From positions 368,236-432,235 of the forward strand of contig CP066685.1 of assembly GCA_016432345.1 (NCBI GenBank): a DNA stretch of 64,000 bases. The letters run 5' to 3'. Source of the DNA: Candidatus Levyibacteriota bacterium (GTDB taxonomy: Bacteria > Patescibacteriota > Microgenomatia > Levybacterales > UBA12049). This document shows, piece by piece, positions 167 through 52,281 of the stretch (positions are counted from its first letter, which is position 1; each line of letters begins with the position of its first letter). The notes beneath the pieces were generated by a model. It did not search any database and was not told the DNA's origin. It saw only the letters and a program-made list of their open reading frames with translations. The translations under genes were made by a program, and so were the position numbers.

Positions 167-2407
167 ATGAAACAATTTGTTAATAAATTCTGGCCATTTT
201 TTTTTCTATTTTCTGTTTGGTTTGTTTTTGCAAATCCGTATTTTATAAAGGGAAAAGTACTGTATGCTTCAGATTACCAGGTTAATTTTTTTCCTCCTTG
301 GAGCCATTATCAAAAATTCGCTGGGCCGGTTAAAAATAACGCCATGCCAGATGTACATGGACAGATATACCCCTGGAAAAAATTTACCATAGATACCTTT
401 AAGCAACGTCAAATTCCTTTTTGGAACCCGTATAATTTTTCAGGTAATCCTCATTTAGCAAATTATCAATCCGCAGTTCTTTCCCCATTTAACATTTTAT
501 TTTTTATTTTCCCTTTTATTGATGCATGGAGTATTAGCATTTTACTGCAGCCACTTTTAGCAGGACTCTTTATGTATTTTTTTGTCCGACAGCTTATGGT
601 AAGTAAAGTTGGATCGTTAGTAAGCGCTGTTAGTTTTATGTTTTGTGGATTTATTGTTGTATGGATGGCATATGGGACACTTGCGTACGCAATTTTGTAT
701 TTGCCGCTTGCTTTATATGCTATAGAAAAATATTTGCAAACAAAAAAACTGCTTTTTCTTTTTCTTCTTGCAACAACAATACCGTTGTCGTTTTTCTCCG
801 GTCATTTTCAAATAAGCCTATATTTCTTTTTGTCAATTGTTCTTTATATCTTTTTCAAAGGAGTTATCGTGAGAAAACTATACGCTATACGCTATACGCT
901 ATACGCTGTTTTTGTTGGTTTGGTTCTTTCGCTTCCTCAACTTTTACCAGCGCTTGAACTTTACAAGCAAGCAATTCGTAGCGAGCTTTTTTTGCTTAGC
1001 GAAGTTATTCCATTTCAGTACCTAATAACAGGTATAGCTCCAGACTTTTTTGGTAATCCGGTAACTCGTAATGATTGGTTTGGGCATTATGCGGAGTGGG
1101 CATCGTTTATAGGGATATGGCCATTTTTATTTGCAATTTATACTGTGGTAAGAGTAGAAAATAAAAAGAAGTTTTTCTTTGTATTTCTTGGTTTATCAGC
1201 ATTGATCTTTGCAGTGAATAGTGCGCTTTCTCCTGTTATTATTTCCCTTAAAATTCCAGTTTTATCAACAAGTGCTTTTTCTCGAATTATTGTTCTTTTT
1301 AGCTTCTCTTTTGCAGTCCTTTCAGGATTTGGATTTGATGCTCTTTTAAAAGATATAGAAAAAAAAGAAAGGAAAAAAATTATCTCACTTTTGTCAGTAA
1401 CAGCGGTTTTTATGATTATTGTGTGGGTAATAATACTTTTTAGTAAATTATATCCATATGAATGGTTGATTGTAGCTAAAAGGAATTTTATTCTTCCTAC
1501 GATGTTATTTATCGGAGGGTCATTTTTACTTTTTGTATCGATATTCATCAGATCTAAAGTATTTTTACTACTTACTGTTTGTTATTTACTATTTGCTGCT
1601 TCGTTTGATAGTTTACGTTTTGCCCAAAAATGGATGCCATTTGGAAACCGTGAATTTGTTTTTCCCGACGTTCCAATTATTGAAGGAATTAGAAAAAATA
1701 TTGGCTATGGGAGAATCTATGGCAATATCGGCGCAGAGCTTACTACCTATTATGGTTTTCCCTCAATTGAAGGATACGACCCATTATATATTGGAAGATA
1801 CGGTGAATTTATTCGGAGTGCAGACACAGGGGAGTTTCAAAAAGGGGAGCGGTCTGTAGTAAAACTTTCCAGAGGCGGAAAATATACTAATAGAGTGCTT
1901 GATGTTTTAGGGGTTTCGCTTATTTTTAATCCAATCCCGGATACAAACCAAGATTGGGCGTATCCTGTGTGGAAAGATCAAGCGCGAAATATTATTATCT
2001 ATAAAGATGATAAATTTGAGCTTTATAAAAATACCCAAAGTATGTCTCGAGTAAGCCTTTTTTATAATGTTGAAGTGATTAAAAACGATAGAGAAATTAT
2101 AAAAAGATTTTATAGCGATAATTTTGATTTTAAACAAACCTTGCTTCTTGAAGAAAATATAGGGCAGTTTAAGCAAGGCTCAGGTAGCGCGCGCATTTTG
2201 TTTTATACGCCAAATAAAATAGATATAGAAACAACATCAAGTGCTCCTGCAATTCTTTTCTTGTCTGACAATTTCTACCCAGGATGGATAGCGAAAGTGA
2301 ATAAGAAAGAAACAAAAATTTTTAGAGCTGATTATACATTTCGAGCAGTTGTTGTCCCATCTGGAAGATCAACTGTAGAATTTATATATGAAAATTGGAA
2401 TTTTTGA
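167..2407 (+). CDS. YfhO-family polytopic membrane glycosyltransferase (GT-C type), paralog A1
   Basis: 746-aa ORF with a multi-helix hydrophobic body. Motifs FWNPYNFSGNPHLANYQSAVLSPFNILFF, IAPDFFGNP, IEGYDPLY and the C-terminal FLSDNFYPGWIAKVNKKETKIFRADYTFRAVVVP match what I recognise as the YfhO family. Paralogs at 3458 and 18246. Confidence 0.75.
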   Translation: MKQFVNKFWPFFFLFSVWFVFANPYFIKGKVLYASDYQVNFFPPWSHYQKFAGPVKNNAMPDVHGQIYPWKKFTIDTFKQRQIPFWNPYNFSGNPHLANYQSAVLSPFNILFFIFPFIDAWSISILLQPLLAGLFMYFFVRQLMVSKVGSLVSAVSFMFCGFIVVWMAYGTLAYAILYLPLALYAIEKYLQTKKLLFLFLLATTIPLSFFSGHFQISLYFFLSIVLYIFFKGVIVRKLYAIRYTLYAVFVGLVLSLPQLLPALELYKQAIRSELFLLSEVIPFQYLITGIAPDFFGNPVTRNDWFGHYAEWASFIGIWPFLFAIYTVVRVENKKKFFFVFLGLSALIFAVNSALSPVIISLKIPVLSTSAFSRIIVLFSFSFAVLSGFGFDALLKDIEKKERKKIISLLSVTAVFMIIVWVIILFSKLYPYEWLIVAKRNFILPTMLFIGGSFLLFVSIFIRSKVFLLLTVCYLLFAASFDSLRFAQKWMPFGNREFVFPDVPIIEGIRKNIGYGRIYGNIGAELTTYYGFPSIEGYDPLYIGRYGEFIRSADTGEFQKGERSVVKLSRGGKYTNRVLDVLGVSLIFNPIPDTNQDWAYPVWKDQARNIIIYKDDKFELYKNTQSMSRVSLFYNVEVIKNDREIIKRFYSDNFDFKQTLLLEENIGQFKQGSGSARILFYTPNKIDIETTSSAPAILFLSDNFYPGWIAKVNKKETKIFRADYTFRAVVVPSGRSTVEFIYENWNF
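878..907 (+). repeat. Perfect heptanucleotide tandem repeat (CTATACG)x4 + CT inside the YfhO-type CDS
   Basis: Read directly: ctatacg ctatacg ctatacg ctatacg ct. It encodes LYAIRYTLYA. The unit length is not divisible by 3. Confidence 0.95.
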
Positions 2408-3458
2408 TCCATATTTAGATACATTGGGCGGCGGAGAAAAGTATATGCTTGTTCTTGCGCAAGTATTATCGGAAAAACACGATGTGTGTATTTTTTGGGA
2501 TAAAAAAAAAGAAGACGAAATAAAAGCCGGAGCAATGCAGCGCTTTGGATTAAATCTAAATACAATTAATTTCCTAGATAATATTTTTTCAATTAAAACC
2601 CCGTTTCTTAAAAGGCTTTGGGAATTACAAAAATATGACGTTATTGTGTATCTAAGTGATGGAAGTATTCCATTCTCACTTAAAAAAAATTTAATTATCC
2701 ATTTTCAGTTTCCTGTTGAGCGGGTAAAGCCATCTTTGTTAGGTAGAGTAAAATTTTTAAGTGTAAAGCAAGTTATTTGTAATTCTAAATTTACAAAGTC
2801 ATATATTGATAAAAAATTTTATATAGATAGTAAGATTTTATATCCTCCGGTCGATATTATGAAAAATACCACATACAAAAAAGAAAATATTATTCTGCAT
2901 GTTGGGAGGTTTAGTTTAGATACTAAAGGCAACAACTTTAAAAAACAGGATTTTATGATTGATGTGTTTAAGAAAATTGCAACAAAAATAACAGATTGGC
3001 GATTTATTCTTATTATTAGCGTTAAGAAGGAAGACAAAGAAAAAATAAAAAGTTTAAGAGAGCGGGCAAAGGGTTTTCCGATCGAAATTATCGAGAATCC
3101 ATCAAACGAAAAACTTTGGCAGATGTATCAAAAAGCAAAAATTTATTGGCATGCTTCTGGTTTTGGAGAAAACTTAGAAAAAAATCCAGAGAAAGCAGAA
3201 CATTTTGGCATAGCAACTGCCGAGGCAATGGGCGCTGGCGCGGTGCCGGTTGTTATAAATGCCGGAGGCCAGCCAGAAATAGTAATGAATGGGAAGAATG
3301 GATTTCTCTGGGATACAGAAGAAGAATTTATTACCAGAACAAAACAGATTATTTCAAATAATACCCTTTGGCAAGAATTTTCTAAAGAGGGACAACAGGC
3401 GGTTATAAAATTTAATAAAGAACGGTTTTGTGAAGAAATAAAAGGAATTGTCGAATAA
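2388..3458 (+). CDS. Glycosyltransferase family 4 (GT-B fold)
   Basis: 356 aa. The N-terminus is MKIGIFDPYLDTLGGGEKY and the C-terminal signature is EHFGIATAEAMGAGAVPVV (E-x7-E). It overlaps the upstream gene end by 20 nt. Confidence 0.85.
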   Translation: MKIGIFDPYLDTLGGGEKYMLVLAQVLSEKHDVCIFWDKKKEDEIKAGAMQRFGLNLNTINFLDNIFSIKTPFLKRLWELQKYDVIVYLSDGSIPFSLKKNLIIHFQFPVERVKPSLLGRVKFLSVKQVICNSKFTKSYIDKKFYIDSKILYPPVDIMKNTTYKKENIILHVGRFSLDTKGNNFKKQDFMIDVFKKIATKITDWRFILIISVKKEDKEKIKSLRERAKGFPIEIIENPSNEKLWQMYQKAKIYWHASGFGENLEKNPEKAEHFGIATAEAMGAGAVPVVINAGGQPEIVMNGKNGFLWDTEEEFITRTKQIISNNTLWQEFSKEGQQAVIKFNKERFCEEIKGIVE

Positions 3459-5683
3459 TGAAAGTAAAGAAGTTCATGCCAATTATTTTTTTAACAGTGT
3501 TTGTTGTGATTTTTTTTAAGGCTTTTTTTCTGCAAAATAAATTACCAATTCCTGCAGATACTATTATTGGACTCTACCATCCTTTCCGCGACCTTTATGC
3601 TAAGCAGTATCCTCGCGGCATTCCTTTTAAAAATTTTTTAATTACCGATCCAGTTAGGCAGCAATATCCCTGGCGGCAGCTTGCCATATCTTTAGAAAAA
3701 AAAATTCAGCTTCCGCTCTGGAATCCTTATAATGCAGCAGGAGCGCCGCTTTTGGCAAATTTCCAAACTGCGGCGTGGTATCCATTTAATATCTTATTTT
3801 TTATTTTCCCATTTTCTTTTGCTTGGTCGGTTCTTGTTGTATTACAGCCGTTGCTTGGGGGAGTATTTTTGTATTTTTACCTTCGGCAGTTATTTATTAA
3901 TAAATGGGGTAGTATACTTGGGGCAATTGCGTTTTCTTTTTCGGGTTTTAGTATTGCATGGCTTGAGTGGAATACGATAGGACATGCAATGTTATGGTTG
4001 CCTTTATTACTTTTATCTATAGATAAAATAGTATTGCGTAATAAACCGCTTATTTGGTCTGTGGTTTTTCTTTTTTCACTTTGCTCATCTTTTTTTGCTG
4101 GACATCTGCAGACATTTTTTTACCTTTTTTTGATTACGCTTACGTATTTTATTGTTCGTTGGATACAAAACAGGAGAGATAAAAAAATAATTTCTTTATT
4201 CATTATTCTTTATTCATTATTCTTTATTGTCACAGCAATACAATGGATTCCCACTCTGCAATTTGTTGGGGAGAGCGCGCGTAGCATTGACCAAGCAGAT
4301 TGGCAAAAAGAAGGATGGTTTATCCCATGGCAACATCTTTTACAATTTGTGGCTCCAGATTTTTTTGGAAATCCTACGACGCTAAATTACTGGGGGGTGT
4401 GGAATTACGCGGAGTTTATTGGCTACGTTGGAATTTTTCCTCTAATTATGGCCTTGTATGCCCTTTTTTTTCGCCGCGACAAAAAAACACTTTTTTTTGG
4501 TACATTTCTTTTTTTATCTTTAATCTTTTCATTGCCAACCTTTTTTGCCAAAATTCCATATTTATTTAATATCCCCTTTTTGTCAACCGCCCAGCCAACC
4601 AGATTGTTATTTATTACAGATTTTTCTTTAGCAGTACTTTGCGCATTAGGATTTGATTACTTTCTTCGTCATAAAAAAGGAATATTGTCTGCAATAAGTT
4701 TTATTGGCATTGTTTTTGTCGGAGCTTGGCTTTTTGCTTCAACTCAAAGTCTTGCCGTGGCAAAGCAAAACCTATTTTTGCCGTCATTTATCTTTGTTAG
4801 CGCGTCATCTTTACTTATTTTTCTTTGGAAATTATCAAAAATAAATCAACGCATCATTATAATGATATATATCATTATAGTTGGTATAACAGTTTTTGAT
4901 TTACTAAGATTCGGTCAAAAGTTTACTCCTATTACTAATAAAGAATATCTCTTTTCACAATCATCAGCTATTTCTTTTTTACAGCAACAGAAAGGATATT
5001 TTAGGATTATGACAACAGATGATCGTATATTGCCACCAAATTTCTCCACTATTTATAGATTACAAAGCATAGATGGATATGATCCTTTGTATCTACTGCG
5101 TTATGGAGAACTTATTGCCGCATCAGAACGAGGAAAACCCGATATTTCTCCACCTTTTGGTTTCAATCGAATCATTACGCCACACGTTTACAACTCAAAA
5201 ATTATTGATCTTCTTGGAGTAAAATATATTTTGAGTCTTTCAGATATTAAATCGCCAAAACTCGTAAAAGTTTTTCAGGAGGGGCAAACCAGAATATACG
5301 AGAATACCAGCGCATTACCCCGAACGTTTTTTGTGTCTAAGATTCATCAGGGATTTGTAAAGGAAGATCTAATAAAGTTTTTATTTAATGACAGTGTTAA
5401 TTTTCGTGATGAAGCTATTTTAGAGGGAGAAGGTGGATTTCCGATGAGTAAAGAGGTAGAAAAAAATAAAGCAGAAATAATACAATATACAGAAAATAGT
5501 ATTAGTATTAAAACCGAAAATTTTGGACAGTCCTTTCTTGTTTTGACAGATATGTATTATCCTGCTTGGCACGCATATATTGATGGTAAAGAAACAAAAA
5601 TATATAGAACAAATTATACTTTTAGAGGAGTATTTGTACCAAATGGTAAGCACATTATAGAGTTTAATATTGGTTTATTATGA
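3458..5683 (+). CDS. YfhO-family polytopic membrane glycosyltransferase, paralog A2
   Basis: 741 aa. Motifs LWNPYNAAGAPLLANFQTAAWYPFNILFF, VAPDFFGNP, IDGYDPLY and the C-terminal LTDMYYPAWHAYIDGKETKIYRTNYTFRGVFVP. TAATG stop/start overlap with the upstream GT4. Confidence 0.75.
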   Translation: MKVKKFMPIIFLTVFVVIFFKAFFLQNKLPIPADTIIGLYHPFRDLYAKQYPRGIPFKNFLITDPVRQQYPWRQLAISLEKKIQLPLWNPYNAAGAPLLANFQTAAWYPFNILFFIFPFSFAWSVLVVLQPLLGGVFLYFYLRQLFINKWGSILGAIAFSFSGFSIAWLEWNTIGHAMLWLPLLLLSIDKIVLRNKPLIWSVVFLFSLCSSFFAGHLQTFFYLFLITLTYFIVRWIQNRRDKKIISLFIILYSLFFIVTAIQWIPTLQFVGESARSIDQADWQKEGWFIPWQHLLQFVAPDFFGNPTTLNYWGVWNYAEFIGYVGIFPLIMALYALFFRRDKKTLFFGTFLFLSLIFSLPTFFAKIPYLFNIPFLSTAQPTRLLFITDFSLAVLCALGFDYFLRHKKGILSAISFIGIVFVGAWLFASTQSLAVAKQNLFLPSFIFVSASSLLIFLWKLSKINQRIIIMIYIIIVGITVFDLLRFGQKFTPITNKEYLFSQSSAISFLQQQKGYFRIMTTDDRILPPNFSTIYRLQSIDGYDPLYLLRYGELIAASERGKPDISPPFGFNRIITPHVYNSKIIDLLGVKYILSLSDIKSPKLVKVFQEGQTRIYENTSALPRTFFVSKIHQGFVKEDLIKFLFNDSVNFRDEAILEGEGGFPMSKEVEKNKAEIIQYTENSISIKTENFGQSFLVLTDMYYPAWHAYIDGKETKIYRTNYTFRGVFVPNGKHIIEFNIGLL
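4192..4228 (+). repeat. 14-nt tandem repeat (TTCTTTATTCATTA) x2.6 inside YfhO-type paralog A2
   Basis: Read directly: ttctttattcatta ttctttattcatta ttctttatt. It encodes SLFIILYSLFFI. The unit is 2x7 nt and is not divisible by 3. It lies at the position homologous to the CTATACG tract of paralog A1. Confidence 0.9.
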
Positions 5684-6579
5684 AAGTAAGTATTATTATT
5701 CCAAATTATAACGGCGCAGAATTGTTGAAAAAAAATTTACCGAAGGTAATGACAGCTTCTGGCAATGCAGAGATTATCGTTGTTGATGATTGTTCCACCG
5801 ATAACTCTATAGAGATACTTGAGGATTTTCCTGTAAGTGTTATTCGTAATGAAAAGAATCTTGGATTTTCGCCAACGGTAAATAAAGGGGTTAAGGAAGC
5901 AAGCGGGGAAATTGTTGTACTACTCAATACCGATGTTTCTCCAGAAAAAGATTTTTTAATTCCATTACTCGATCATTTTAAGGATGAAAAAGTTTTTGCT
6001 GTTGGGTGTATGGATAAAAGTATAGAGGGTTCGAAAACAGTTTTACGGGGAAGGGGCTTAGGAAAATGGGAAAGAGGATTTCTGGTTCATAGGCGTGGAG
6101 ATGTAGATAAAACAAATACCCTTTGGGTAAATGGAGGAAGCGGAGCATTTAGAAAATCTATTTGGGAAAAACTAGGTGGGTTTAACGAACTTTACAGCCC
6201 ATTCTATTGGGAAGACATAGATATTTCTTATCGAGCATTAAAGTCTGGTTACGGCATTTTTTTTGAACAGAAAAGTATTGTTATCCACGAACATGAAAAA
6301 GGAGCAATAAAAAATAAATATTCACAGTTTAATATAAAAACGATTGCTTACAGAAATCAATTTATTTTTGTTTGGTTAAACATTACTGATTTTTCCCTGG
6401 TTCTATCACATATTTTTTGGCTCTCTTATCATTTTATAAACGCAATTAGAAGAAAAGACTCCGCCTTTTTTTTGGGCTTTATGAAAGCATTGTTGCTTTT
6501 TGTTAAGATATTAGAATCAAGAAGAAAGATAAAAGGCTTGTTTAAAAGAAAGGACAAAGAAATTTTTATTTTGTCGTAG
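5680..6579 (+). CDS. Glycosyltransferase family 2 (GT-A fold) with a hydrophobic C-terminal tail
   Basis: 299 aa. Motifs VSIIIPNYNG, VVDDCSTDNS, LLNTDV and WEDIDISYR. ATGA start/stop overlap with the upstream YfhO-type gene. Confidence 0.8.
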   Translation: MKVSIIIPNYNGAELLKKNLPKVMTASGNAEIIVVDDCSTDNSIEILEDFPVSVIRNEKNLGFSPTVNKGVKEASGEIVVLLNTDVSPEKDFLIPLLDHFKDEKVFAVGCMDKSIEGSKTVLRGRGLGKWERGFLVHRRGDVDKTNTLWVNGGSGAFRKSIWEKLGGFNELYSPFYWEDIDISYRALKSGYGIFFEQKSIVIHEHEKGAIKNKYSQFNIKTIAYRNQFIFVWLNITDFSLVLSHIFWLSYHFINAIRRKDSAFFLGFMKALLLFVKILESRRKIKGLFKRKDKEIFILS

Positions 6580-6581
6580 TC

Positions 6582-7292
6582 ATGAAGTTATCAATTATAA
6601 TTCCTGTTTTTAACGAAGAAAAAACAATAACGCAGGTGTTGGAGAAAGTTGTTTTATTAAAACTTCCTGGTGTAGAAAAAGAGATTATTGTTGTTGATGA
6701 CGGATCTACAGATAGTTCAAAGTTTAAAATTCAAAATTTAAAGTTTATGGAAATAAAGTTTTTTTCTCACGAAAAAAATCAGGGGAAAGGCGCGGCGGTG
6801 AAGACAGGAATAAAAAATGCCACAGGAGATTACATTATAATTCAAGATGCAGATTTAGAATACAATCCTAAAGATATACAAAAGCTAATGGAACCAATTT
6901 TAAATGGAAAAGCAAAAGTTGTTTATGGAACAAGGTTAAAACGATTGCCAAATTTTTCAAAAGATGAAAAAAAATTAAGATTTTTTGTTCATTATCTTGG
7001 CAATAAATTTTTAAGTTTATTGACAAGTATACTGTATAGGCAGTGGATTACAGACATGGAGACAGGTTATAAACTTATACCAAGGGGTGTCTTACAAAAA
7101 ATCACACTTCATGCTAGAAGTTTTGATTTTGAGCCAGAAATTACCGCCAAAATTCTAAAAAACCATATAAAAATTCTTGAAATTCCAATTTCTACAAATC
7201 CAAGAGGATATGACCAAGGTAAAAAACTTAATACGGTAAAGGATGGTATTTTTGCTTTTATGACTCTGCTTAAATATAGGTTTTTTGAATAA
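6582..7292 (+). CDS. GT2, polyprenyl-phosphate sugar synthase-like (DPM1/GtrB/CsbB/ArnC type)
   Basis: 236 aa. Motifs LSIIIPVFNEEKTI, VVDDGSTDSS, GKGAAVKTGIKNATGDYIIIQDADLEYNP. The small size and motif set are typical of Pren-P-hexose synthases. It sits directly upstream of a GT-C gene. Confidence 0.7.
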   Translation: MKLSIIIPVFNEEKTITQVLEKVVLLKLPGVEKEIIVVDDGSTDSSKFKIQNLKFMEIKFFSHEKNQGKGAAVKTGIKNATGDYIIIQDADLEYNPKDIQKLMEPILNGKAKVVYGTRLKRLPNFSKDEKKLRFFVHYLGNKFLSLLTSILYRQWITDMETGYKLIPRGVLQKITLHARSFDFEPEITAKILKNHIKILEIPISTNPRGYDQGKKLNTVKDGIFAFMTLLKYRFFE

Positions 7293-8800: not shown

Positions 8801-8804
8801 TGGT

Positions 8805-10028: not shown

Positions 10029-10036
10029 ACTGCCAT

Positions 10037-13181: not shown

Positions 13182-13184
13182 ATA

Positions 13185-14210: not shown

Positions 14211-14248
14211 ATTGCAATTTTTGTTAGTAAGTATATACTACCATAAAT

Positions 14249-14953: not shown

Positions 14954-14955
14954 TC

Positions 14956-16608: not shown

Positions 16609-16612
16609 TTAT

Positions 16613-18241: not shown

Positions 18242-18245
18242 GCTT

Positions 18246-20603: not shown

Positions 20604-20612
20604 TACAGGAAA

Positions 20613-25959: not shown

Positions 25960-25962
25960 CTC

Positions 25963-27648: not shown

Positions 27649-27656
27649 CCTAAAAA

Positions 27657-32034: not shown

Positions 32035-32036
32035 TA

Positions 32037-35939: not shown

Positions 35940-35951
35940 GCATTTTTGATT

Positions 35952-36479
35952 ATGAAAGTAAAACTTTTATTTTTTATTTCAATATGTTTATTTTTTTTAG
36001 TTTTGCCTAAAGTAGGCTATGCTGAATCTAATTATGTTTTACCATATCCATCTTTTATGCCGGGTACAGCATTATACAAATTGCATATTCTCTATGAACA
36101 TATACAAAAGTATTGGTATTTTGGTAATTTTAGCCAATTTAGCTATAATTTAAATCTTTCGAATAAGTATTTAGTCGAAGCAAAAACACTTTTTGAATAC
36201 AAACAATATCTTTTAGCACATCAGGCGCTATACAAATCTAATGAGTATTTTACTGAAGCATACCGCTTTTTAGGAAGATCAAAGCAAGAAGGGAAAGATA
36301 CAAATCAAAGAGTGGCTACGCTTAAAAATGCTTCAGAAAAGCATAGAGAAGTTCTATGGCAAATTAAAACAGAAATTCCAGAAATATATATATGGAAACC
36401 AGAAAAAGAAAAACAAACAACTCTTTTTTTATGGAAGCAAATTGATAAGGCGATAGAAATTAGAAAAAACAGCGCATGA
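35952..36479 (+). CDS. Secreted protein, DUF5667-like (tentative)
   Basis: ATG at 35952 (the track uses TTG at 35946). Signal peptide KVKLLFFISICLFFLVLPKVGYA, then ESNYVLPYPSFMPGTALYKL and a predicted helical, K/E-rich body. Paralog at 60042. Confidence 0.5.
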   Translation: MKVKLLFFISICLFFLVLPKVGYAESNYVLPYPSFMPGTALYKLHILYEHIQKYWYFGNFSQFSYNLNLSNKYLVEAKTLFEYKQYLLAHQALYKSNEYFTEAYRFLGRSKQEGKDTNQRVATLKNASEKHREVLWQIKTEIPEIYIWKPEKEKQTTLFLWKQIDKAIEIRKNSA

Positions 36480-37591
36480 AAAAAATTATAATTGTTGTAT
36501 ATTTAATTACACTTTTCTTATTTACTGTTTTTTCTTATCTGTTTATAGATCAAAATCTCTTTTATCTTAAAGATTTTTTTACAGGCATTGCTTTTAACTA
36601 TAGAGAAGTTACAACTTTTATATACCTAACTTTAATTTTTTTATTCTCTATTTTTTATTATTTATTTCTGTGGTTGATTAATACAAAAAAGCTTTCAATG
36701 TTCGAAGCTAAATGGTTAATAGGTATAACTGTAGGTATTCTATTTTTTTCTTATCCTGCAATGCTTTCTTATGACATATTTAATTATCTTACCACTTCAA
36801 AAGTCGCCTTTTATTATCATGAAAATCCTTATGTCGTTATGCCGATAGAATTTGTAAACGAGCCGTTTCTTTCTTTTACCCGCGCGGCAAATAAAATAGC
36901 TTTATATGGTCCAGTGTGGATATTTCTTACAGGGATTCCTTATTATTTATCATTTGGAAATTTTATATTTTTATTATTTGGGTTTAAATTATTTATTACT
37001 TTATTTTTTGTTTTGACAATAATTCTTATTTGGAAAATGACGAAAAATCTTTTTCAAGTAGCACTTTTTGCTCTAAACCCTTTAGTGCTTATTGAGACAT
37101 TAATGAGCGGACATAACGATATAGTTATGATATTTTTTGCACTTTTTTCTTTTTATTTTTTGCATCGTAGGAACATCCTGTTTGCGGCATTTTTTTTATT
37201 TTTGTCTGTTTTTATTAAATACGCAACTATTTTTTTAATTCCTGTATTTTTGTATTGTCTGTGGCAAATGTATACAAAGCAAAGAGTGGAATGGGAAAAA
37301 ATATATCAATTTTCAGCACTTTTAATGATTTTTGTATTTTTTCTTTCCCCAGTTCGTGAAGAAATTTATTCATGGTATGCAATTTGGTTTTTAGGATTTA
37401 TTTCGCTAGTGTCTATTAAAAAATTTATTTATCAAGCAAGTATTATTTTTTCATTCTCCTTATTGCTTCGATATATGCCATACATGTTATTTGGAACGTA
37501 TCTTGCGCCAGTGCCAGCATTAAAAAATATCCTTACATTTATTCCTCTTTTTTTATTTACAATTTATTATGTTCTTAAAAAGAAAATTTGA
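36476..37591 (+). CDS. Polytopic membrane protein, DUF2029/GT87-like (tentative), paralog E2
   Basis: 371 aa. Motifs SYDIFNYLTTSKVAFYYHENPY and SGHNDIVMIFFALFSFYFL...SVFIKYAT. ATGA overlap with the upstream gene. Confidence 0.45.
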   Translation: MKKIIIVVYLITLFLFTVFSYLFIDQNLFYLKDFFTGIAFNYREVTTFIYLTLIFLFSIFYYLFLWLINTKKLSMFEAKWLIGITVGILFFSYPAMLSYDIFNYLTTSKVAFYYHENPYVVMPIEFVNEPFLSFTRAANKIALYGPVWIFLTGIPYYLSFGNFIFLLFGFKLFITLFFVLTIILIWKMTKNLFQVALFALNPLVLIETLMSGHNDIVMIFFALFSFYFLHRRNILFAAFFLFLSVFIKYATIFLIPVFLYCLWQMYTKQRVEWEKIYQFSALLMIFVFFLSPVREEIYSWYAIWFLGFISLVSIKKFIYQASIIFSFSLLLRYMPYMLFGTYLAPVPALKNILTFIPLFLFTIYYVLKKKI

Positions 37592-39164
37592 ACTGTTTTT
37601 GATTAGCTGTTTTTTGGTTTTTTCCTTGTGGTTAATGAATAAATCTTTTGGATATGATAACACGAATCATACATTTAGGCTTGCAAGAAATGAAATTGGA
37701 GATTTCGGACTCCATCTATCTTTAATACGATCATTCTCATGGGGAAATAATTTTCCTCCAGAATCTCCATTTTTCCCAGGACGGCCGCTTCCGTATCATT
37801 ATTATTTTGATTTTATCGTTGGATTGTTGGAAAGAAGTGGTATTCCTATTAATTATGCTTTTAATGGTTTGAGTGCTATGTTTTTTACTTTACTTCTTTT
37901 TTTGCTTTATAAACTTCCGCAGAGAATTTTTTTTAAGAGTAAAATGCTTGGAGTCATTTCAGTTTTACTTTTTGTGTTTCATAGTGGATTTACATTCGTT
38001 GATTTTTTAAAACAATATGGTTTTTCTTTTTACTCGTTTTGGCACTTGCCAGATTATATAGACAAAGGACCATTCGATGGTTCACTTATTTCAATTTTTT
38101 TTACCTTAAATGTATATCTTAATCAACGACATCTTGTTGCTGGATTAGTATTGAGTTTTGGAATCTTTTATTTTTTACTTCCGTATTTCTTAGATAAAAA
38201 TAAACCTTCATTTAAAAAAATTTTGTTGTGCGGATTTATTCTAGGAATTTTATCGGGAATTCATACACTTATTTTTTTTATCACAATACTTATGTTATTT
38301 TTAATGATGCTTCTTTTTAGAAAATTTTATTTTTTAATTCCCTTGTTTTTTCCTGCTTTTGCACTTTTTTCTATTCATGTGAAAGACATCATTAATCAAA
38401 ATTTACAACATCTTTATTTTAACCCAGGGTTTCTTTCTGAAAAACCCATTACTCTTCAGAGTTTTTTCATATTTTGGTTTGTAAATACTGGTATTGCATT
38501 TTTTATTATTCCTCTGAGCGTGTTTTTTTCCAACAAGAAACAAAAAATTTTATTTGTGGCTTTTTTACCACTTTTTATTATTGGTAATATTTTTCAATTA
38601 AGTTTTCGGATTGAACACAATCATTCAATTTTTAACTATTTTTTTATTTTTGGCAATTTTTATATTGCATTTTTTCTCGTACGTTTTTTTTCAAATGGGG
38701 TAAAGAGAAAAATAGTATTGTTAATTTTTCTATTTTTTTTGACAGCATCAGGAGTTATAGACCTTATGGCAGTAAAAAATGATTTTCAATTATCTTTGCC
38801 AGACGCTCCGGCAAATAAATTTATGTTGTGGATTAAAAACGATACAAAGAAAGATAGTATTTTTCTTTCCAAGCAGGAAATTTTGGATCCAATAACGTTT
38901 TCCGGCAGAAAGAACTATTTAGGTCACACATACTATTTATCTGTAATGGGATACAATTTCCAAGAAAGACAAAAACAAGCAGCGTCTTATTTTGAAGCAA
39001 ATTCAACTGATAAGCTAATCTCAATGAGAAAAGCAGGAATTAACTATATTGTAATACCGAAAGGTCATGTTGTTGATTTTAACTATAATATTAACCAGAG
39101 TTTTTTTGATAAAAATTTACAAAAGGTGTATCAGGATAAATCTGTAAGTGTTTATAAATTATGA
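37569..39164 (+). CDS. Polytopic membrane protein with a C-terminal soluble domain (unclassified, possible GT-C)
   Basis: 531 aa. The first loop is GDFGLHLSLIRSFSWGNNFPPESPFFPGRPLPYHYYFDF. There are more than 10 hydrophobic segments and a polar tail of about 130 aa. No family recognised. Confidence 0.4.
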   Translation: MFLKRKFELFLISCFLVFSLWLMNKSFGYDNTNHTFRLARNEIGDFGLHLSLIRSFSWGNNFPPESPFFPGRPLPYHYYFDFIVGLLERSGIPINYAFNGLSAMFFTLLLFLLYKLPQRIFFKSKMLGVISVLLFVFHSGFTFVDFLKQYGFSFYSFWHLPDYIDKGPFDGSLISIFFTLNVYLNQRHLVAGLVLSFGIFYFLLPYFLDKNKPSFKKILLCGFILGILSGIHTLIFFITILMLFLMMLLFRKFYFLIPLFFPAFALFSIHVKDIINQNLQHLYFNPGFLSEKPITLQSFFIFWFVNTGIAFFIIPLSVFFSNKKQKILFVAFLPLFIIGNIFQLSFRIEHNHSIFNYFFIFGNFYIAFFLVRFFSNGVKRKIVLLIFLFFLTASGVIDLMAVKNDFQLSLPDAPANKFMLWIKNDTKKDSIFLSKQEILDPITFSGRKNYLGHTYYLSVMGYNFQERQKQAASYFEANSTDKLISMRKAGINYIVIPKGHVVDFNYNINQSFFDKNLQKVYQDKSVSVYKL

Positions 39165-40405
39165 AACAATTTTTTATTCCATTGTGCATTTTTTTTGTGG
39201 TTTTTTTTATTTATTTTGGAGTCGGGTCTCAGTTTTCTTTTAAGCCAAAATGGGCATTAGATTATTTTAATCCGTTAGCATTTTCACTTCTTAATATGCG
39301 TTTTGATATACCAATTCAAGGAGACAACCATGATCTTATATATTTTCATGGCAAGTGGTATGTGCCTTGGGGCGTTTTGCCAGCATTACTACTTATTCCT
39401 TTTCAATTGTTATTAGGCAGGTATATTCCGGAATTTTATATTACTTTATTTCTTGGAAGTGTAAATGTTGTTTTTATATACCTATTACTTTTAAGAATAA
39501 AAAAAGAATTTTTTCCACATATAAGTAGATTTACAATACTATCTATCGTAATATTTTTTGCTTTTGGCACAACTCATTTTTATGTGGGTACACTTGGCAG
39601 TTCGTGGCATGTTAGCCAAATGGTAAGTTCCTCCCTTGGTATACTTGGTATTTTTGCAGTGTTTCGGAAACATCCAAAAACAATCCATTTTTTATTGAGC
39701 GCAGTATTTATTTGTTTGGCTATGTTGGGGAGACAAACTGTTATATTTTTGATTTCTTTACCAATTTCTTTATATCTTTTTCAGAGTTTTTACAAACAAA
39801 AAGAAATAATAAATAAAAAAAAGATTGTAGTAAATGGATTACTTATATTTGGTTTGCCTTTTATTATTTGTGTTTCCTGGTTTTTTTACTATAACTATCT
39901 TAGATTTGGAGATATATTTCAAACAGGATACCAATATATTAAGGAAGACGCAGTCTTATCGGAAATAAGAAAAACAAATGGCATGTTTTCTATTCGCAAT
40001 ATTCCAACTAATCTATGGTATATGATTTTTGAAATTCCAAAATTTCATTGGATTAACAATAAAATTACACTTGGTATTAATCTGTATGGAAATTCTGTTT
40101 TCTTTTTATCGCCGCCTCTTCTTTTTTCATTTTTGGCATTGCCCCTTCAGAAAAAAAAGAATGCATTTTTTTTTAATCCGTTTGTCACCTCTTTGTGGAT
40201 TGGGATATTGATAACGATTATTCCAATTCTTATGTATTATAGTAGTGGTTGGATACAGTTTGGCTATCGGTATGCGCTTGATATTATGGTGTCTCTTATA
40301 CTGCTTTCTGTATTTGCGCTTAAAGGAAAACTAAATACATTGTACATTGTTGGAATTTTTTTCTCTATTTTTGTTCATGTTTTAGGTATATATTCTCTGA
40401 TGTAG
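39161..40405 (+). CDS. Polytopic membrane protein (unclassified, possible GT-C)
   Basis: 414 aa. N-terminal loop NHDLIYFHGKWYVPWGVLPALLLIPF, which resembles lipid-carrier-dependent glycosyltransferases. ATGA overlap with the upstream gene. Confidence 0.4.
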   Translation: MKQFFIPLCIFFVVFFIYFGVGSQFSFKPKWALDYFNPLAFSLLNMRFDIPIQGDNHDLIYFHGKWYVPWGVLPALLLIPFQLLLGRYIPEFYITLFLGSVNVVFIYLLLLRIKKEFFPHISRFTILSIVIFFAFGTTHFYVGTLGSSWHVSQMVSSSLGILGIFAVFRKHPKTIHFLLSAVFICLAMLGRQTVIFLISLPISLYLFQSFYKQKEIINKKKIVVNGLLIFGLPFIICVSWFFYYNYLRFGDIFQTGYQYIKEDAVLSEIRKTNGMFSIRNIPTNLWYMIFEIPKFHWINNKITLGINLYGNSVFFLSPPLLFSFLALPLQKKKNAFFFNPFVTSLWIGILITIIPILMYYSSGWIQFGYRYALDIMVSLILLSVFALKGKLNTLYIVGIFFSIFVHVLGIYSLM

Positions 40406-40409
40406 TTAT

Positions 40410-42038
40410 ATGAAAGGATTTCTTTCTATTTTTTTAGTTTTGTTTTTTTCTTTTGTTGCTGCAAGATCTTTACTAGCTCCAGGATTGCCGCCAACACATG
40501 ATGGAGAATATCATATTATTAGATTTTACGAATTTGACAAGACTTTAAGAGCAGGAGATTTATACCCCCGCTGGGCGCAGGATTTAAATAATGGATATGG
40601 CGTTCCATTATTTAACTATGTCTACCCGTTACCAAATTATATTGCCTCTTTTTTTCATCTATTCGGAGTAAGTTTTATTGATGCATTTAAATTAAGCATG
40701 TTTTTTGCCGCAATAGTAGGTTCAATAGCAATGTATTTATGGGCAAAGATTTTTTGGGGAGAAGTGGGTGGTGTTGTCTCATCTGTTTTTTATACTTTTG
40801 CCCCATATCACTTTGTTGATATATATGTCAGGGGTTCTGTTGGTGAAGTATGGGCATTAGCGTTTTTCCCTGCATTTCTTTGGTCAGCAACAGTATTTAT
40901 AAAAGAAAGAAGACCAAGATTTGTCGTTTTGTCCGGGATTTTTCTCTCTCTAATTATATTTTCTCATAATATTTTAGCATTAATGTTTTTTCCCTTCGCT
41001 CTTTTTTATGTTCTCTTTTTAATTTTTTTTAGCAAAGAAAAACTATACGCTATACGCTATACGCTATACGCTATTTTTTTGGGTCTAGGTTTGTCTGCAA
41101 TTTTTTGGTTGCCCGCCATTTTTGAAGCAAATTATGTTAAAGGGTTACAAATATATGATATTGAAAATAATTTTCCAGAATTGTATCAACTATTTATTCC
41201 ATCGTGGGGGTCTGGTTTTTCAAATGATGATTTACCGAATCAAATGTCTCCTCAAATAGGAATTGCAAACATATTTTCTTTATTAGGGACAGTTATCGTA
41301 TTGATTATTCTTTTGAGGAGAAAACAAAAAAGTGTTTCATTACTAATTTTGTTTTTTCTTTTATGGTTTACTGTCGTATTTTTTTTACTGCTTCCTGCAT
41401 CTTTGCCAATTTGGTTGCATGTACCTTTGATGAATTATTTTCAATTTCCGTGGCGTCTGTTGAGTCTTGAGATTTTATTTTTGGCATTTCTAGCCGGGAG
41501 TATGATAATGATTTGGAAGAATAAGATCTTTCTGGCGCTGATGGTTATTTTTCCAATAGTGTTAGGTGTTGGCTATGCAAAGCCGCCATTCTATTTTAAT
41601 AGAGATGATATATATTATATTTCCAGATCAAATTTTATTGATGGAACAAACAGTCCAGGAGATTTATTTAATACGGTATGGTTTAATAAGGGTTTAAAAA
41701 AACAAAAAGAAAAAATTTTAGTAGGGCATGGTATGTTGACAGATGTCCAAATAAATCCTACAAAATATTTATTACGTGTTGAAGTAAATTCAGATTCTCA
41801 GGTAACAGTGAATACAGTATATTTTCCTGGATGGACGGCAATGATTAATAAAAAAGAAATAGATACAAAACCTGATAATAATGGTTTAATTACTTTTTTT
41901 GTCCCTGAAAGTACGAATTATATTGTGCTTTTTTTTAAAAATACTTTTGTTAGAATGATTGCAACAAGTATTTCTTTGGTATCTTTTTTTTCGATAATAC
42001 TGTATTTAGTATTATATTTTCGTTATGAAAAAAAATAA
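40410..42038 (+). CDS. HDGxxH..PRW-type (COG5617/'PTPS-related') polytopic membrane protein, paralog D3
   Basis: 542 aa. Motifs THDGEYHIIRFYEFDKTLRAGDLYPRWAQDLNNGYGVPLFNYVYPLPNY, QFPWRL and the C-terminal NTVYFPGWTAMINKKE...GLITFFVPE. Confidence 0.55.
   Translation: MKGFLSIFLVLFFSFVAARSLLAPGLPPTHDGEYHIIRFYEFDKTLRAGDLYPRWAQDLNNGYGVPLFNYVYPLPNYIASFFHLFGVSFIDAFKLSMFFAAIVGSIAMYLWAKIFWGEVGGVVSSVFYTFAPYHFVDIYVRGSVGEVWALAFFPAFLWSATVFIKERRPRFVVLSGIFLSLIIFSHNILALMFFPFALFYVLFLIFFSKEKLYAIRYTLYAIFLGLGLSAIFWLPAIFEANYVKGLQIYDIENNFPELYQLFIPSWGSGFSNDDLPNQMSPQIGIANIFSLLGTVIVLIILLRRKQKSVSLLILFFLLWFTVVFFLLLPASLPIWLHVPLMNYFQFPWRLLSLEILFLAFLAGSMIMIWKNKIFLALMVIFPIVLGVGYAKPPFYFNRDDIYYISRSNFIDGTNSPGDLFNTVWFNKGLKKQKEKILVGHGMLTDVQINPTKYLLRVEVNSDSQVTVNTVYFPGWTAMINKKEIDTKPDNNGLITFFVPESTNYIVLFFKNTFVRMIATSISLVSFFSIILYLVLYFRYEKK
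41043..41074 (+). repeat. Perfect heptanucleotide tandem repeat (CTATACG)x4 + CTAT inside paralog D3
   Basis: Read directly: ctatacg ctatacg ctatacg ctatacg ctat. It encodes LYAIRYTLYAI. The unit and copy number are identical to 878..907 in a different gene family. Confidence 0.95.
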
Positions 42039-43152
42039 ATCTGATTCGGAGTGGATTTTTTGGACAACTATTACCATTAGTTTTGTTATGCTTATTCATA
42101 ATGGAACAGAACCTCTTTTTTTATTTGCTTATGCAAGTATCCCTATTCTTATTGTTTTGTTCTATCTTAAAAAAAGTTTATTTCCGATCGTACTATACCT
42201 TTTGTTTGTAGGTACGGTTGGAAGAATTACACAATATTATCATTCGACATATGGATCTGATACATTACTGGCAGTTCGCGATTTTATCGGATATTTTGTA
42301 CATGGTTACAATGTATATAAAGAAATGACTATGTCAACAACAGGGTTGCAACCTTTTACTTATTTGCCTTTTAGCCTTTTTTGGTATCTGCCAGCTTATG
42401 GATTAAAAATGGACTTGCGTTTTTTTGAAATGCTCGTATCTTGTTTTGTACCTGTTATCTTAGCTTTTTATGGAAAAATTATAAATAGAGTACAAATATT
42501 ACCAATACTTGCAGTGATATCGCTTGCGCCATTTCTTATTGATTTATCTGCAGATGGAAGTAATGACAACAGCGCAATTTTTATATTGCTTTTATCTATT
42601 TTGTCTTTTGTTTACGCCAAAAAAATAAAAAGCCGCAACGTTGCTATTTTGAGCGCAGTAATTTTAGGTTTTGCCGCGTCTTTTAAGCATTATGTATTTT
42701 TTTATGTTTTATTTTTCTTTATGTATTTAATACAAAACAAAAAAATACTTCCAATTTCTGGGGGCAGATACATTTTTTATACTGTATTGACAATTATTAT
42801 TGTAAGCGGGCCTTTTATTCTTTCTGAGCCAGAAGGTTTTCTGCGCAGCCTTGCTTTTATTCAGTTACCTGCTGGACATGGAACTTGGGGTTGGAATATA
42901 TGGGTAGCATTAAGAGATTTATTGCAAATAACAATTACCAGTGGTCAAATGTCAGGTGTACGTATAATACTTACTTTATTAACTTTTTTTCTGTTGTTTC
43001 GATATTTCCGGATTAATGCATTAAACAAAGTTTTTATTGCTTCAGGACTAACTATGTTGGTATATTTTGCATTTAGTCAATGGACAACGATTGCGTATTT
43101 TACATTTCTTCTTCCCCTGTTTTTTTTAAGCGCGTTTAAGATTGAAGATTAG
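42025..43152 (+). CDS. Polytopic membrane protein, DUF2029/GT87-like (tentative), paralog E3
   Basis: 375 aa. Motifs GSDTLLAVRDFIGYFVHGYNVY and ADGSNDNSAIFILLLSILSF...AASFKHY. It overlaps the upstream gene by 14 nt. Confidence 0.45.
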   Translation: MKKNKSDSEWIFWTTITISFVMLIHNGTEPLFLFAYASIPILIVLFYLKKSLFPIVLYLLFVGTVGRITQYYHSTYGSDTLLAVRDFIGYFVHGYNVYKEMTMSTTGLQPFTYLPFSLFWYLPAYGLKMDLRFFEMLVSCFVPVILAFYGKIINRVQILPILAVISLAPFLIDLSADGSNDNSAIFILLLSILSFVYAKKIKSRNVAILSAVILGFAASFKHYVFFYVLFFFMYLIQNKKILPISGGRYIFYTVLTIIIVSGPFILSEPEGFLRSLAFIQLPAGHGTWGWNIWVALRDLLQITITSGQMSGVRIILTLLTFFLLFRYFRINALNKVFIASGLTMLVYFAFSQWTTIAYFTFLLPLFFLSAFKIED

Positions 43153-46298: not shown

Positions 46299-46300
46299 TT

Positions 46301-52272: not shown

Positions 52273-52281
52273 TTCAATTAT

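Follow-up and report, generated by a model that had tools for sequence, protein, structure and literature searches.

A tandem array of 22 GT-C-type glycosyltransferase genes adjoining a Wzx-type glycan locus in Candidatus Levyibacteriota

In Gram-positive bacteria, multi-component transmembrane glycosylation has been described for wall polymers, with a variant, GacI/J/K/L, in which a glycosyltransferase (GT) of the GT-A type lacking transmembrane (TM) helices works with a Wzx-type flippase (PMC8035078). In the CsbB/GtcA/YfhO, GtlA/GtlB, GacI/J/K/L and L. lactis Csd systems, a family 2 GT (GT2) makes the polyprenyl-phosphate sugar, which a GT of the GT-C class (YfhO or PMT_2) transfers outside the membrane (PMC8035078, PMC7389260). 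Here, we describe 22 genes for GT-C-type proteins that lie together at positions 167-43152 (42,986 bp) of a 64-kb stretch of Candidatus Levyibacteriota DNA from contig CP066685.1; "the window" denotes this whole stretch. As in the Gram-positive systems, GT2 and GT-C genes adjoin each other in the window, which likewise contains three YfhO genes, PMT_2-type genes, GT2 genes resembling DPMS and ArnC, and a Wzx gene. In contrast to the single GT-C genes with their partners in the Gram-positive systems (PMC8035078), the window has 22 GT-C genes in tandem with only ~4-5 GT2 genes. It also differs in having no GtrA-family flippase gene, with a Wzx-type gene present at 44234.

The mycobacterial and corynebacterial set (EmbA-C, AftA-D, PimE and MptA-C, with Ppm1 and decaprenyl-phosphate donors) comprises many GT-C enzymes that act sequentially outside the membrane, assembling a complex glycan out of polyprenyl-phosphate monosaccharides. 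The window resembles this set in having GT87/MptA_B-type proteins, and the structural models of two array members align with AftA and AftD (37569) and with EmbC (20613), although the sequence identity is ~10-12% and no arabinose-donor pathway genes were seen in the window. Mycobacterial GT-C genes are scattered over a genome of ~4 Mb, unlike the single array found here in a 0.76-Mb contig. Regarding the ArnT/ArnC pair, ArnT (5ezm/5f15) is the top structural match of 20613, and the ArnC-like gene 14249 lies directly upstream of a PMT_2 gene. Nevertheless, no other arn genes are present in the window, 14249 scores 66.5 bits against the ArnC equivalog cut-off of 529 bits, and we know of no bacterium of the Candidate Phyla Radiation (CPR) that makes lipid A. 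The actinobacterial Ppm1/Pmt systems of protein O-mannosylation, family GT39 (PMC5882110, PMC11727336), share with the window an Asp-Glu (DE) pair after the first TM helix (TM1), PMT_2/PMT profile matches and a DPMS-like synthase nearby. They differ from it in number, since the window holds six core paralogs and at least four divergent ones. Actinobacteria usually have one Pmt. Finally, three-component pentofuranose addition and Gtr-type O-antigen modification (PMC11127046) are similar in that a GT-C enzyme, working beyond the cytoplasm with a polyprenyl-phosphate sugar, decorates a glycan that has already been made. The scale of the array suggests that, unlike in those systems, a large share of the glycan is assembled on the outer side of the membrane. 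Pentofuranose and Gtr-type systems each add a single side-branch.

We name each open reading frame (ORF) of the array by its start coordinate and write the minus-strand member as 22323(-). The window is AT-rich (GC ~0.33) and nearly wholly coding, on the + strand, and the genes of the array abut or overlap by a few bases. The GT-C superfamily accounts for 22 of 31 consecutive genes. A preliminary description of this DNA, made from its letters, had placed the 22 ORFs at the starts used here and counted 11,884 codons in proteins of 371-785 aa; all of this was borne out, with the lengths taken from the later start sites and the codons amounting to 35.65 kb of the 42,986-bp span. The dominance of hydrophobic helices that it reported was also recovered, with 6-14 hydrophobic peaks per protein (GRAVY 0.28-1.02; n = 22) compared to 0-2 in the nine interspersed ORFs. 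Longer ORFs are available at 8772, 18195, 24082 and 31944; the later starts at 8805, 18246, 24307 and 32037 align better with the N-termini of paralogs. In the array scan, every ORF of 50-150 aa was nested within a bigger gene, and thus the array contains no hidden small genes. Homologues of the array ORFs number from hundreds to thousands, which, together with the BLAST and jackhmmer families described below and the 22 of 31 genes belonging to one superfamily, argues that the array is not a product of chance. GT-C coding sequence (35.6 kb) makes up 4.7% of the 762,565-bp contig, and the window, 8.4% of the contig, consists almost entirely of glycan-synthesis genes.

The 22 members are listed below, with the family letters of the preliminary description (A, YfhO-type; B, PMT_2/GT39-type; C, ArnT-like; D, HDGxxH and PRW type; E, GT87-like) and, where needed, the Pfam gathering threshold (GA).

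167..2407, + strand: YfhO-family GT-C, 746 aa, family A (Pfam YfhO, E 3.5e-15); 33-34% identity with 3458 and 18195; D62 of the first outer loop conserved; NCBI name 'YfhO family protein'
3458..5683, + strand: YfhO-family GT-C, 741 aa, family A (Pfam YfhO, E 6.6e-33); conserved D64
7292..8800, + strand: PMT_2-like GT-C, 502 aa, family C (Pfam PMT_2 only, at E 0.021); 32% identity to 34425; placed with the PMT_2 group by jackhmmer; conserved D41 within DQARD
8805..10028, + strand: GT87/DUF2029-family GT-C, 407 aa, family E (Pfam GT87, 26.1 bits, GA 25); H105-D106 conserved; NCBI name 'DUF2029 domain-containing protein'
10037..11650, + strand: PTPS_related GT-C, 537 aa, family D (Pfam PTPS_related, E 1.2e-12); HDGxxH, PRW; conserved D29
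14956..16608, + strand: PMT_2 (GT39-like) GT-C, 550 aa, family B (Pfam PMT_2, E 3.9e-11); D33-E34 conserved 100%; SPWH present
16613..18241, + strand: PMT_2 GT-C, 542 aa, family B (Pfam PMT_2, E 5.3e-8); conserved D33-E34
18246..20603, + strand: YfhO-family GT-C, 785 aa, family A (Pfam YfhO, E 2.5e-30); conserved D80, as numbered from the longer ORF 18195
20613..22331, + strand: GT-C without a Pfam model, 572 aa (HYV37_02125); fold matches GT-C
22323..24263, - strand: divergent PMT_2 GT-C, 646 aa (Pfam PMT_2, E 6.1e-9); conserved D33; orthologues likewise on the minus strand in related loci
24307..25959, + strand: PMT_2/PMT GT-C, 550 aa, family B (Pfam PMT_2, E 5.9e-8; PMT, E 1.3e-6)
25963..27648, + strand: PMT_2 GT-C, 561 aa, family B (Pfam PMT_2, E 1.9e-8); 100% identical to an NCBI 'glycosyltransferase family 39 protein' of a Ca. 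Levyibacteriota metagenome-assembled genome
27657..28889, + strand: short PMT_2-like GT-C, 410 aa, family C (Pfam PMT_2, E 0.0039, below GA); joined to the PMT_2 group by jackhmmer; conserved D30
28886..30529, + strand: PMT_2 GT-C, 547 aa, family B (Pfam PMT_2, E 2.4e-12); 40% identity to 25963
30526..32034, + strand: PMT_2-like GT-C, 502 aa, family C (Pfam PMT_2, E 6.4e-4, below GA); conserved D35 in DQGRD
32037..33686, + strand: PTPS_related GT-C, 549 aa, family D (Pfam PTPS_related, E 8.7e-10); HDGxxH, PRW; conserved loop residue D65
34425..35939, + strand: PMT_2 GT-C, 504 aa, family C (Pfam PMT_2, 28.0 bits, GA 26.1); conserved E39 in GDETVRD
36476..37591, + strand: GT87-like GT-C, 371 aa, family E (hhalign 100% to the 8772 profile); conserved S98-x-D100-IFNY
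37569..39164, + strand: DPY19/STT3/AftA-like GT-C, 531 aa (NCBI 'hypothetical', HYV37_02185); assigned by fold matches
39161..40405, + strand: short GT-C of a large family without a Pfam model, 414 aa; assigned by hhalign to the PMT_2 profile
40410..42038, + strand: PTPS_related GT-C, 542 aa, family D (Pfam PTPS_related, E 6.4e-14); conserved D31
42025..43152, + strand: orphan GT-C-like membrane protein, 375 aa (Pfam PMT_2, E 0.018); the weakest assignment

Fourteen of the 22 proteins pass the gathering threshold of a Pfam model: three for YfhO, three for PTPS_related, seven for PMT_2 (14956, 16613, 22323(-), 24307, 25963, 28886 and 34425) and one for GT87. We take these four models to be members of the Pfam GT-C clan. 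Another four proteins match PMT_2 below threshold (27657, 30526, 7292 and 42025), and four have no Pfam match (20613, 36476, 37569 and 39161). For 36476, the match is absent from the window protein itself, and PF26314 (MptA_B_family) was found on the 36476 protein of a same-strain contig from the Logan assemblies (L078) and on the orthologue in locus L001. All-against-all BLAST reproduced families A-D. Members of A, of D and of the five-gene core of B share ~30-40% identity within their family; values are lower for 22323, the minus-strand gene of B, and for the family C members 27657 and 30526. Iterative jackhmmer searches of the window and 67 related loci then gathered 18 proteins into three GT-C groups, one formed by YfhO and PTPS_related, one by all ten PMT_2-like proteins and one by 8805 and 36476. 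Hence, of the five families originally proposed, A-D recur in pairwise comparison, but A merges with D and B with C upon iteration. Family E, to which three genes had been assigned, shrinks to 8805 and 36476, since 39161 and 42025 are closer to PMT_2-like profiles. The four proteins outside the three groups (20613, 37569, 39161 and 42025) match the PMT_2-like profile in N-terminal register with hhalign values of 96-97.5%, compared to at most 3.5% against every GT-C profile for Wzx 44234, used as a polytopic negative control. ORF 42025 reached 95.9% against the family C profile and 92.6% against that of GT87.

The motifs attributed to these families were found, some of them as variants. In family B, the DE pair lies at approximately residue 33, right after TM1, in six of six proteins, and SPWH occurs in four of the five core members. 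In family C, DQxRD is present in 7292 and 30526, with GDETVRD and WDQVDN as variants in the other two, and PLxG in three of four; in family D, HDGxxH and PRW are present in all three. An acidic residue (Asp/Glu) in the loop after TM1, which we infer to face outside, is kept in 21 of the 22 proteins and is at least 90-100% conserved in homologue alignments, including D33 in 22323, D106 in 8772, D100 in 36476, D36-E37-x-D39 in 20613, D45 in 37569 and D58 in 39161. Because this residue is retained, the proteins look like active enzymes, which is a likelier condition for them than that of decayed copies.

At the sequence level, NCBIfam gave no match for the five unassigned membrane proteins, and PDB searches with 20613, 37569, 25963 and profiles A1-A3 returned only weak noise, e.g., GABA-receptor and TM proteins. 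Since these searches were uninformative, a comparison of folds was needed; it covered two proteins, 20613 and 37569, modelled with AlphaFold (AF2) and compared with Foldseek. Both models were of high confidence (pLDDT 93.2 for 20613 and 89.6 for 37569) and showed 11-13 long helices followed by a small C-terminal alpha/beta domain. For 20613, the top match was ArnT 5ezm (E 3.6e-5), followed by STT3, DPY19 and EmbC (EmbC probability 0.99). For 37569, the matches were CeDPY19 7zli (E 1.6e-8), STT3, AftA (TM-score 0.55), PglB, AftD and ArnT. The GT-C fold matches of both proteins had Foldseek probabilities of 0.99-1.0 and TM-scores of 0.4-0.55, and transporters appeared only at probabilities of at most 0.16. 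Eight proteins without an above-threshold Pfam match and empty sequence-only PDB searches would be expected if many of the 22 were polytopic proteins of another kind (transporters, Wzy-like polymerases, O-antigen ligases, carrier-lipid recycling proteins) that resemble GT-C enzymes through their hydrophobicity only. We consider this highly improbable, however, given that the profile-profile matches fall in N-terminal register and include the loop after TM1, that the Wzx control fails, that the two least-supported proteins fold as GT-C at high confidence with transporters far behind, and that the acidic loop residue is invariant. In none of these comparisons did a protein turn out to have a transporter fold or another non-GT-C fold, and the identification of the array proteins as GT-C-type glycosyltransferases of several old paralog families is supported.

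Two of these families, those of 20613 and 39161, are beyond Pfam coverage. The 20613 family has 309 homologues, with no Pfam domain on any of 120 among the matches listed, and its residues H31, D36, E37 and D39 are invariant. The 39161 family comprises 2,327 representative clusters at E<=1e-3, and 51 of 53 members have no Pfam match; D58 is invariant, and the family profile matches that of PMT_2 with an hhalign value of 97.5% (E 7e-12). Some 39161 homologues are ~600-640 aa long, with an N-terminal extension of ~230 aa, and one is a TPR fusion. In the case of 37569, some homologues carry PF10034 (Dpy19) or PF10060 (DUF2298), and D45 is invariant.

Orthologues of 25963 were found in 67 species-representative genomes with 32-62% identity; the named ones are nearly all Levybacteria or unclassified Patescibacteria. 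Synteny was compared in the 34 loci with a length of 20 kb or more, within ±10 kb of the 25963 orthologue, where 6-12 of 14-19 ORFs are polytopic and most of these best-match GT-C paralogs of the window. The loci share a conserved frame. Its left part reads YfhO, family 4 GT (GT4), YfhO, GT2, GT2, variable GT-C genes, 24307-type, 25963-type and a further variable segment; its right part reads PTPS_related, GT2, epimerase, DUF5667, GT87-like, PTPS_related, GT4, Wzx, GT2 and GT4. In the 34 loci, the GT-C array adjoins the same GT4-Wzx-GT2-GT4 block, and in the minimal versions (L012, L033 and L039) the array and the Wzx block are nearly contiguous. The order YfhO-5680-6582 and the pair PTPS_related-33668, each joining GT-C and GT2 genes, recur across genomes. 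ORF 24307, the best match in 54 of the related loci searched (median identity 56%), is among the two most conserved members. The median identity of orthologues is 33-56%, compared to 30-40% between paralogs; since the former equals or exceeds the latter, the paralogs are old and individually retained.

At least 15 GT-C genes lie within 30 kb in GCA_016182185.1, and dense GT-C arrays are the rule in this lineage, with the 22-gene version of the window as an expanded example; they are routine in Levybacteria and other Microgenomates. The density had initially been considered unusual, which does not hold within the lineage, although we found no paper describing these arrays in the literature on glycosyltransferases of CPR, Patescibacteria, Microgenomates or Levybacteria. 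While the enzyme class and its chemistry are already known, 22 tandem GT-C genes, the persistence of comparable arrays across a CPR lineage, the fusion to a Wzx-type locus and two sizeable families without a Pfam model appear to be new in the literature searched.

In GCA_040960095.1 (L071), the right-hand part of the frame is the same, with a PF04188-like GT-C gene beside the GT4 gene. The product of this gene, a 365-aa PF04188 (Mannosyl_trans2, PIG-V-like) protein at L071:15381-16478, was considered as an orthologue of 42025 and rejected, as BLASTP showed no homology. It lies downstream of the GT4 gene, a place taken by Wzx in the window, and the 42025 of the window lies upstream of the same GT4 gene. 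Approximately half of the 67 genomes are titled 'uncultured Gammaproteobacteria' (third-party, TPA, metagenome-assembled genomes, e.g., L012, L014, L016, L020 and L022-L024), and the titles 'Pacearchaeota archaeon' and 'Saccharimonadales' also occur among array-bearing assemblies (L006 and L018). These non-Levybacteria titles are probably placeholder labels or belong to mis-binned contigs.

The nine genes of the array that do not encode GT-C proteins are one GT4 gene, four GT2 genes, a minus-strand trio and one gene for a DUF5667 protein:

2388..3458, + strand: cytoplasmic GT4 (Pfam Glycos_transf_1, E 4e-20); position between two YfhO genes kept in related loci
5680..6579, + strand: GT2 with two C-terminal TM helices, GtrB/CsbB-like, candidate polyprenyl-phosphate sugar synthase (Pfam Glycos_transf_2, E 3.5e-28); TM peaks at 228 and 260; best PDB match DPMS 5mlz, N-terminal part only
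6582..7292, + strand: soluble GT2 of the DPMS/AglJ/PpgS class, candidate polyprenyl-phosphate hexose synthase; NCBIfam AglJ 123.8 bits, also PpgS, near full length and below equivalog cut-offs; P. furiosus DPMS 5mlz, E 5e-18 over residues 1-214, the whole catalytic domain; also ArnC and GtrB
11570..14210, - strand: trio of DegT aminotransferase, hexapeptide acyltransferase and GFO/IDH/MocA oxidoreductase (Pfam DegT_DnrJ_EryC1, E 4e-121; Hexapep, E 2e-27; GFO_IDH_MocA, E 4e-26), presumably resembling the WbpB/D/E trio
14249..14953, + strand: soluble GT2 of the ArnC/DPMS/PpgS class, candidate polyprenyl-phosphate sugar synthase directly adjoining the PMT_2 gene 14956; NCBIfam ArnC over model positions 8-211 (score given above), also PpgS; PDB matches ArnC 9bhc, E 2.6e-14, and DPMS, E 2e-12
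33668..34435, + strand: GT2, 255 aa, partner of PTPS_related 32037, with which it is paired in nearly all loci (Pfam Glycos_transf_2, E 6.5e-23)
35946..36479, + strand: DUF5667 protein with an N-terminal TM anchor, 177 aa (Pfam DUF5667, E 4.6e-7); directly upstream of GT87-like 36476, an order that recurs in at least 19 loci

The likeness of the GT2 proteins to DPMS and ArnC is at the level of class only, because all score below the NCBIfam equivalog cut-offs. As judged from their sequences, these interleaved DPMS/ArnC-like genes fit glycosylation outside the membrane from polyprenyl-phosphate sugars. The DUF5667 protein 35946 could be an acceptor-binding partner or an acceptor; a second membrane-anchored DUF5667 protein is encoded at 60042-60551.

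A block of conventional glycan genes begins 28 bp past the array:

43180..44250, + strand: GT4, first gene of the block, also following the array in related loci (Pfam Glycos_transf_1, E 1.4e-33)
44234..45496, + strand: Wzx-type (MOP) flippase (Pfam Polysacc_synt_3, E 2.6e-12; Polysacc_synt, E 6.9e-10)
45423..63660, + strand: sugar-nucleotide and glycosyltransferase block (Pfam scans) with three GT4, three GT2, epimerases/dehydratases, an RmlB-like dehydratase (54373), RmlC (55375), a methyltransferase, an NTP-transferase-HAD fusion, a GHMP kinase and an SIS isomerase; its last four genes encode a DUF5667 protein, a short-chain dehydrogenase, a UDP-sugar dehydrogenase and a GFO oxidoreductase

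The domain content of this block would correspond to dTDP-rhamnose and GDP-heptose pathways. The sugar-nucleotide genes as a whole (the trio 11570-14210, RmlB-like/RmlC, the SIS, GHMP and NTP-transferase-HAD genes and the UDP-sugar dehydrogenase) suggest that unusual sugars may be made. The region had previously been judged unlike a conventional O-antigen or capsule locus. For 167-43152 this stands, as it contains no phosphoglycosyltransferase, Wzy or ABC exporter, but a Wzx/GT4/GT2/sugar-nucleotide block adjoins it and is linked to it by synteny.

On balance, and with moderate confidence, we favour the view that these 43 kb make up the GT-C half of a conserved super-locus for envelope glycans, one that builds an outer-face glycopolymer from polyprenyl-phosphate sugars. 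In this model, GT2 proteins of the DPMS/ArnC/GtrB class (6582, 14249 and probably 5680 and 33668) would put single sugars on polyprenyl phosphate. The lipid-linked sugars would be flipped to the outer face by the Wzx-type protein 44234 or an unlinked flippase, candidates that come into play for want of a GtrA-type gene. As many as 22 GT-C enzymes, presumably acting in sequence and each specific for a particular linkage or acceptor, would then add sugars to an external glycopolymer, the core of which would come from the adjacent GT4/GT2/Wzx block with precursors of the dTDP-rhamnose, GDP-heptose and diamino-sugar types. Because the frame is conserved and the enzyme content varies from species to species, the surface glycan so produced would be expected to differ between lineages. 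The scheme follows that of the Gram-positive multi-component systems. On a larger scale, mycobacterial arabinogalactan and lipoarabinomannan are assembled in a similar way. The enzyme class, the retained loop residue, the synteny and the pairing with GT2 genes are shown here, whereas the donors, the flippase, a polymer as acceptor and the action of one enzyme per linkage are inferred.

Several points weigh against this model. A Pfam scan of the 52 distinct ORFs of at least 150 aa in the window (the nested ORF 47775-48446 (-) was left out) gave no Bac_transf, Glycos_transf_4, Wzy_C or Wzz, and only Wzx. Within the 64 kb, no initiating phosphoglycosyltransferase, polymerase, ligase or LCP enzyme was found, so that polymer assembly is incomplete as seen, nor was an ABC exporter; initiating and polymerase genes could lie outside the window. 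There is also no GtrA-family flippase gene in the array, nor a free small ORF for one. The ~4-5 candidate donor synthases face 22 transferases, and a logic of one donor per enzyme therefore fails. For 42025, the catalytic Asp could not be placed, and no relatives were found in the 67 related loci or in the metagenome scan. Finally, the best-known enzymes with PMT_2-, DPY19- and STT3-like folds glycosylate proteins.

This last point leads to a possibility that we hold to be somewhat unlikely, namely that the array is mainly a protein-glycosylation battery for O-, N- or C-glycosylation of secreted or surface proteins (pilins, S-layer, adhesins), with many paralogs because each recognises other protein acceptors or extends protein-linked glycans. 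Consistent with it, the largest family is PMT_2/GT39-like and carries the GT39 name at NCBI, and 24307 alone passes the Pfam PMT model PF02366 (28.6 against a GA of 22.7), the other family B proteins matching only PMT_2. The PMT_2 model is, however, broad and also covers lipid- and polymer-modifying enzymes, ArnT among them. GT87 enzymes, moreover, act on lipoglycans, which does not favour protein acceptors. Additional arguments in the same direction are that GtlB, which glycosylates lipoteichoic acid, is given with a PMT-2 domain and that the characterised YfhO enzymes act on teichoic acids (PMC8035078). The evidence from 37569 is divided: its nearest structural neighbours are the C-mannosyltransferase DPY19 and STT3/PglB, and its C-terminal domain is weakly similar to the globular domain of AglB (3vu0, probability 0.94), but its invariant residues show no obvious WWDYG motif of the oligosaccharyltransferase type. 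The conservation of a membrane-anchored DUF5667 protein inside the array would also suit protein glycosylation. Nevertheless, because of the tight synteny with the Wzx, GT4/GT2 and sugar-nucleotide block, we favour a polymer over a protein as the probable acceptor.

Four genes of the array contain short tandem repeats, detected with TRF:

878..907, + strand: perfect (CTATACG)x4.3 tract in ORF 167 (100% matches), encoding KLYAIRYTLYA
4192..4228, + strand: perfect 14-nt (7+7) tract, x2.6, in ORF 3458
26314..26346, + strand: perfect (AAATTGG)x4.7 tract in ORF 25963
41043..41074, + strand: perfect (CTATACG)x4.6 tract in ORF 40410

Gain or loss of one unit would put any of the four genes out of frame within its first half, and the CTATACG tracts of 167 and 40410 lie at a similar point of the protein (residues 238 and 212, respectively). 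In a TRF run on 1.19 Mb of these loci, with six codon-shuffled sets as controls, periods in multiples of 7 accounted for 164 of 335 arrays, compared to 17-22 in the controls (~8-fold); period 7 alone accounted for 77 arrays, compared to 6-7. Among the orthologues of 25963, those of at least 11 species have 7-nt tracts at 1,150-1,250 nt from the gene start, and the units differ by species.

Judging by their sequence and position, the heptanucleotide tracts may be slippage switches for phase variation. If so, the array could be a contingency repertoire in which a subset of the GT-C genes is on in each cell and a clonal population displays many glycoforms, which could serve phage evasion or host matching and would be compatible with either a polymer or a protein acceptor. 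We regard this as unlikely, even though the perfect tracts in the first half of 167, 25963 and 40410, the 14-nt tract in 3458, the enrichment over shuffled controls and the species-specific units in 25963 orthologues all speak for it. Perfect tracts occur in only 4 of the 22 genes, and their density is similar in membrane genes (3.3 per 100 kb) and other genes (2.9 per 100 kb), which makes them a property of the genome or locus and not of GT-C genes in particular.

Contigs from Logan (k=31 assemblies of the same strain, several runs) show 0 mismatches to the window over up to 12.6 kb, and they break inside all four tracts, which hints at variation in tract length. Contig L085 starts at 882 and ends at 4224; contigs of three sequencing runs end or start at 26319-26342; four contigs, each from another run, start at 41044-41051; and two contigs of one run jointly span from tract to tract. 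The tracts at 878 and 41043 have 34 identical nt in common, which accounts for the breaks at these two sites. The breaks at 26314 and 4192 do not result from repeats within the window, since no 31-mer of those tracts recurs there; they could be due to length heterogeneity or to identical tracts elsewhere in the genome, (AAATTGG)n or TTCTTTATTCATTA. No length variant has been seen directly, and a flank-anchored metagenome search for variants of the 26314 tract was empty.

Related loci offer further observations on repeats. In L053 (Shapirobacteria), the 24307-type and 25963-type genes share a near-identical stretch of ~75 nt around (GTTATCA)x3 (8625-8700 and 10320-10400), which suggests gene conversion between paralogs. 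Frameshifted 'OFF' alleles were considered in the same locus and rejected, as the frame breaks are masked runs of N. The longest perfect tract, (AGTTGAG)x6.3 at L029:1822-1865, lies in an unusually long intergenic gap (163 nt) just upstream of the 25963 orthologue and is followed by further 7-nt-periodic AT-rich sequence; this tract may affect promoter spacing. In the window, an invertible element around 22323-24263(-) was considered and rejected, as the inverted matches in its flanks are all weak and AT-rich.

The genomes of CPR bacteria are minimal, and how these bacteria recognise and hold on to their hosts is poorly understood. The 4.7% of GT-C coding sequence, a glycan-devoted window amounting to 8.4% of the contig and the lineage-wide layout suggest that the surface glycan is a major, selected trait, and the addition of sugars to the cell surface from the outer side of the membrane looks like a central part of how this groundwater bacterium lives. 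A bolder proposal, which we think decidedly improbable as a whole, is that Levybacteria, and probably other Microgenomates, build most of their glycan coat externally with 15-22 or more GT-C enzymes, an array denser than any other known to us, as a species-varying, tract-switched and phase-variable 'barcode' for host attachment or phage evasion. If it were true, a clonal population of tiny episymbionts would display a combinatorial, phase-variable glycan barcode. Should the tracts prove hypermutable, they would constitute contingency-locus phase variation in CPR bacteria; the literature that we found on repeat-driven phase variation in CPR mentions none. The array is a target for lectin staining, glycomics and cryo-electron tomography (cryo-ET) on Levybacteria enrichments, as well as a source of compact and diverse GT-C enzymes for glycoengineering, including the two families without a Pfam model.

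In NCBI, the locus tags of the array genes have the form HYV37_02xxx. Names were retrieved for twelve array proteins, three of which bear family names (YfhO family, DUF2029 domain and GT39 family) and nine 'hypothetical protein' (7292, 10037, 20613, 27657, 30526, 36476, 37569, 39161 and 42025). The AT skew is negative (about -0.1 to -0.2) over most of the GT-C array and positive past ~46 kb, a shift likely caused by the T-rich codons of membrane proteins.

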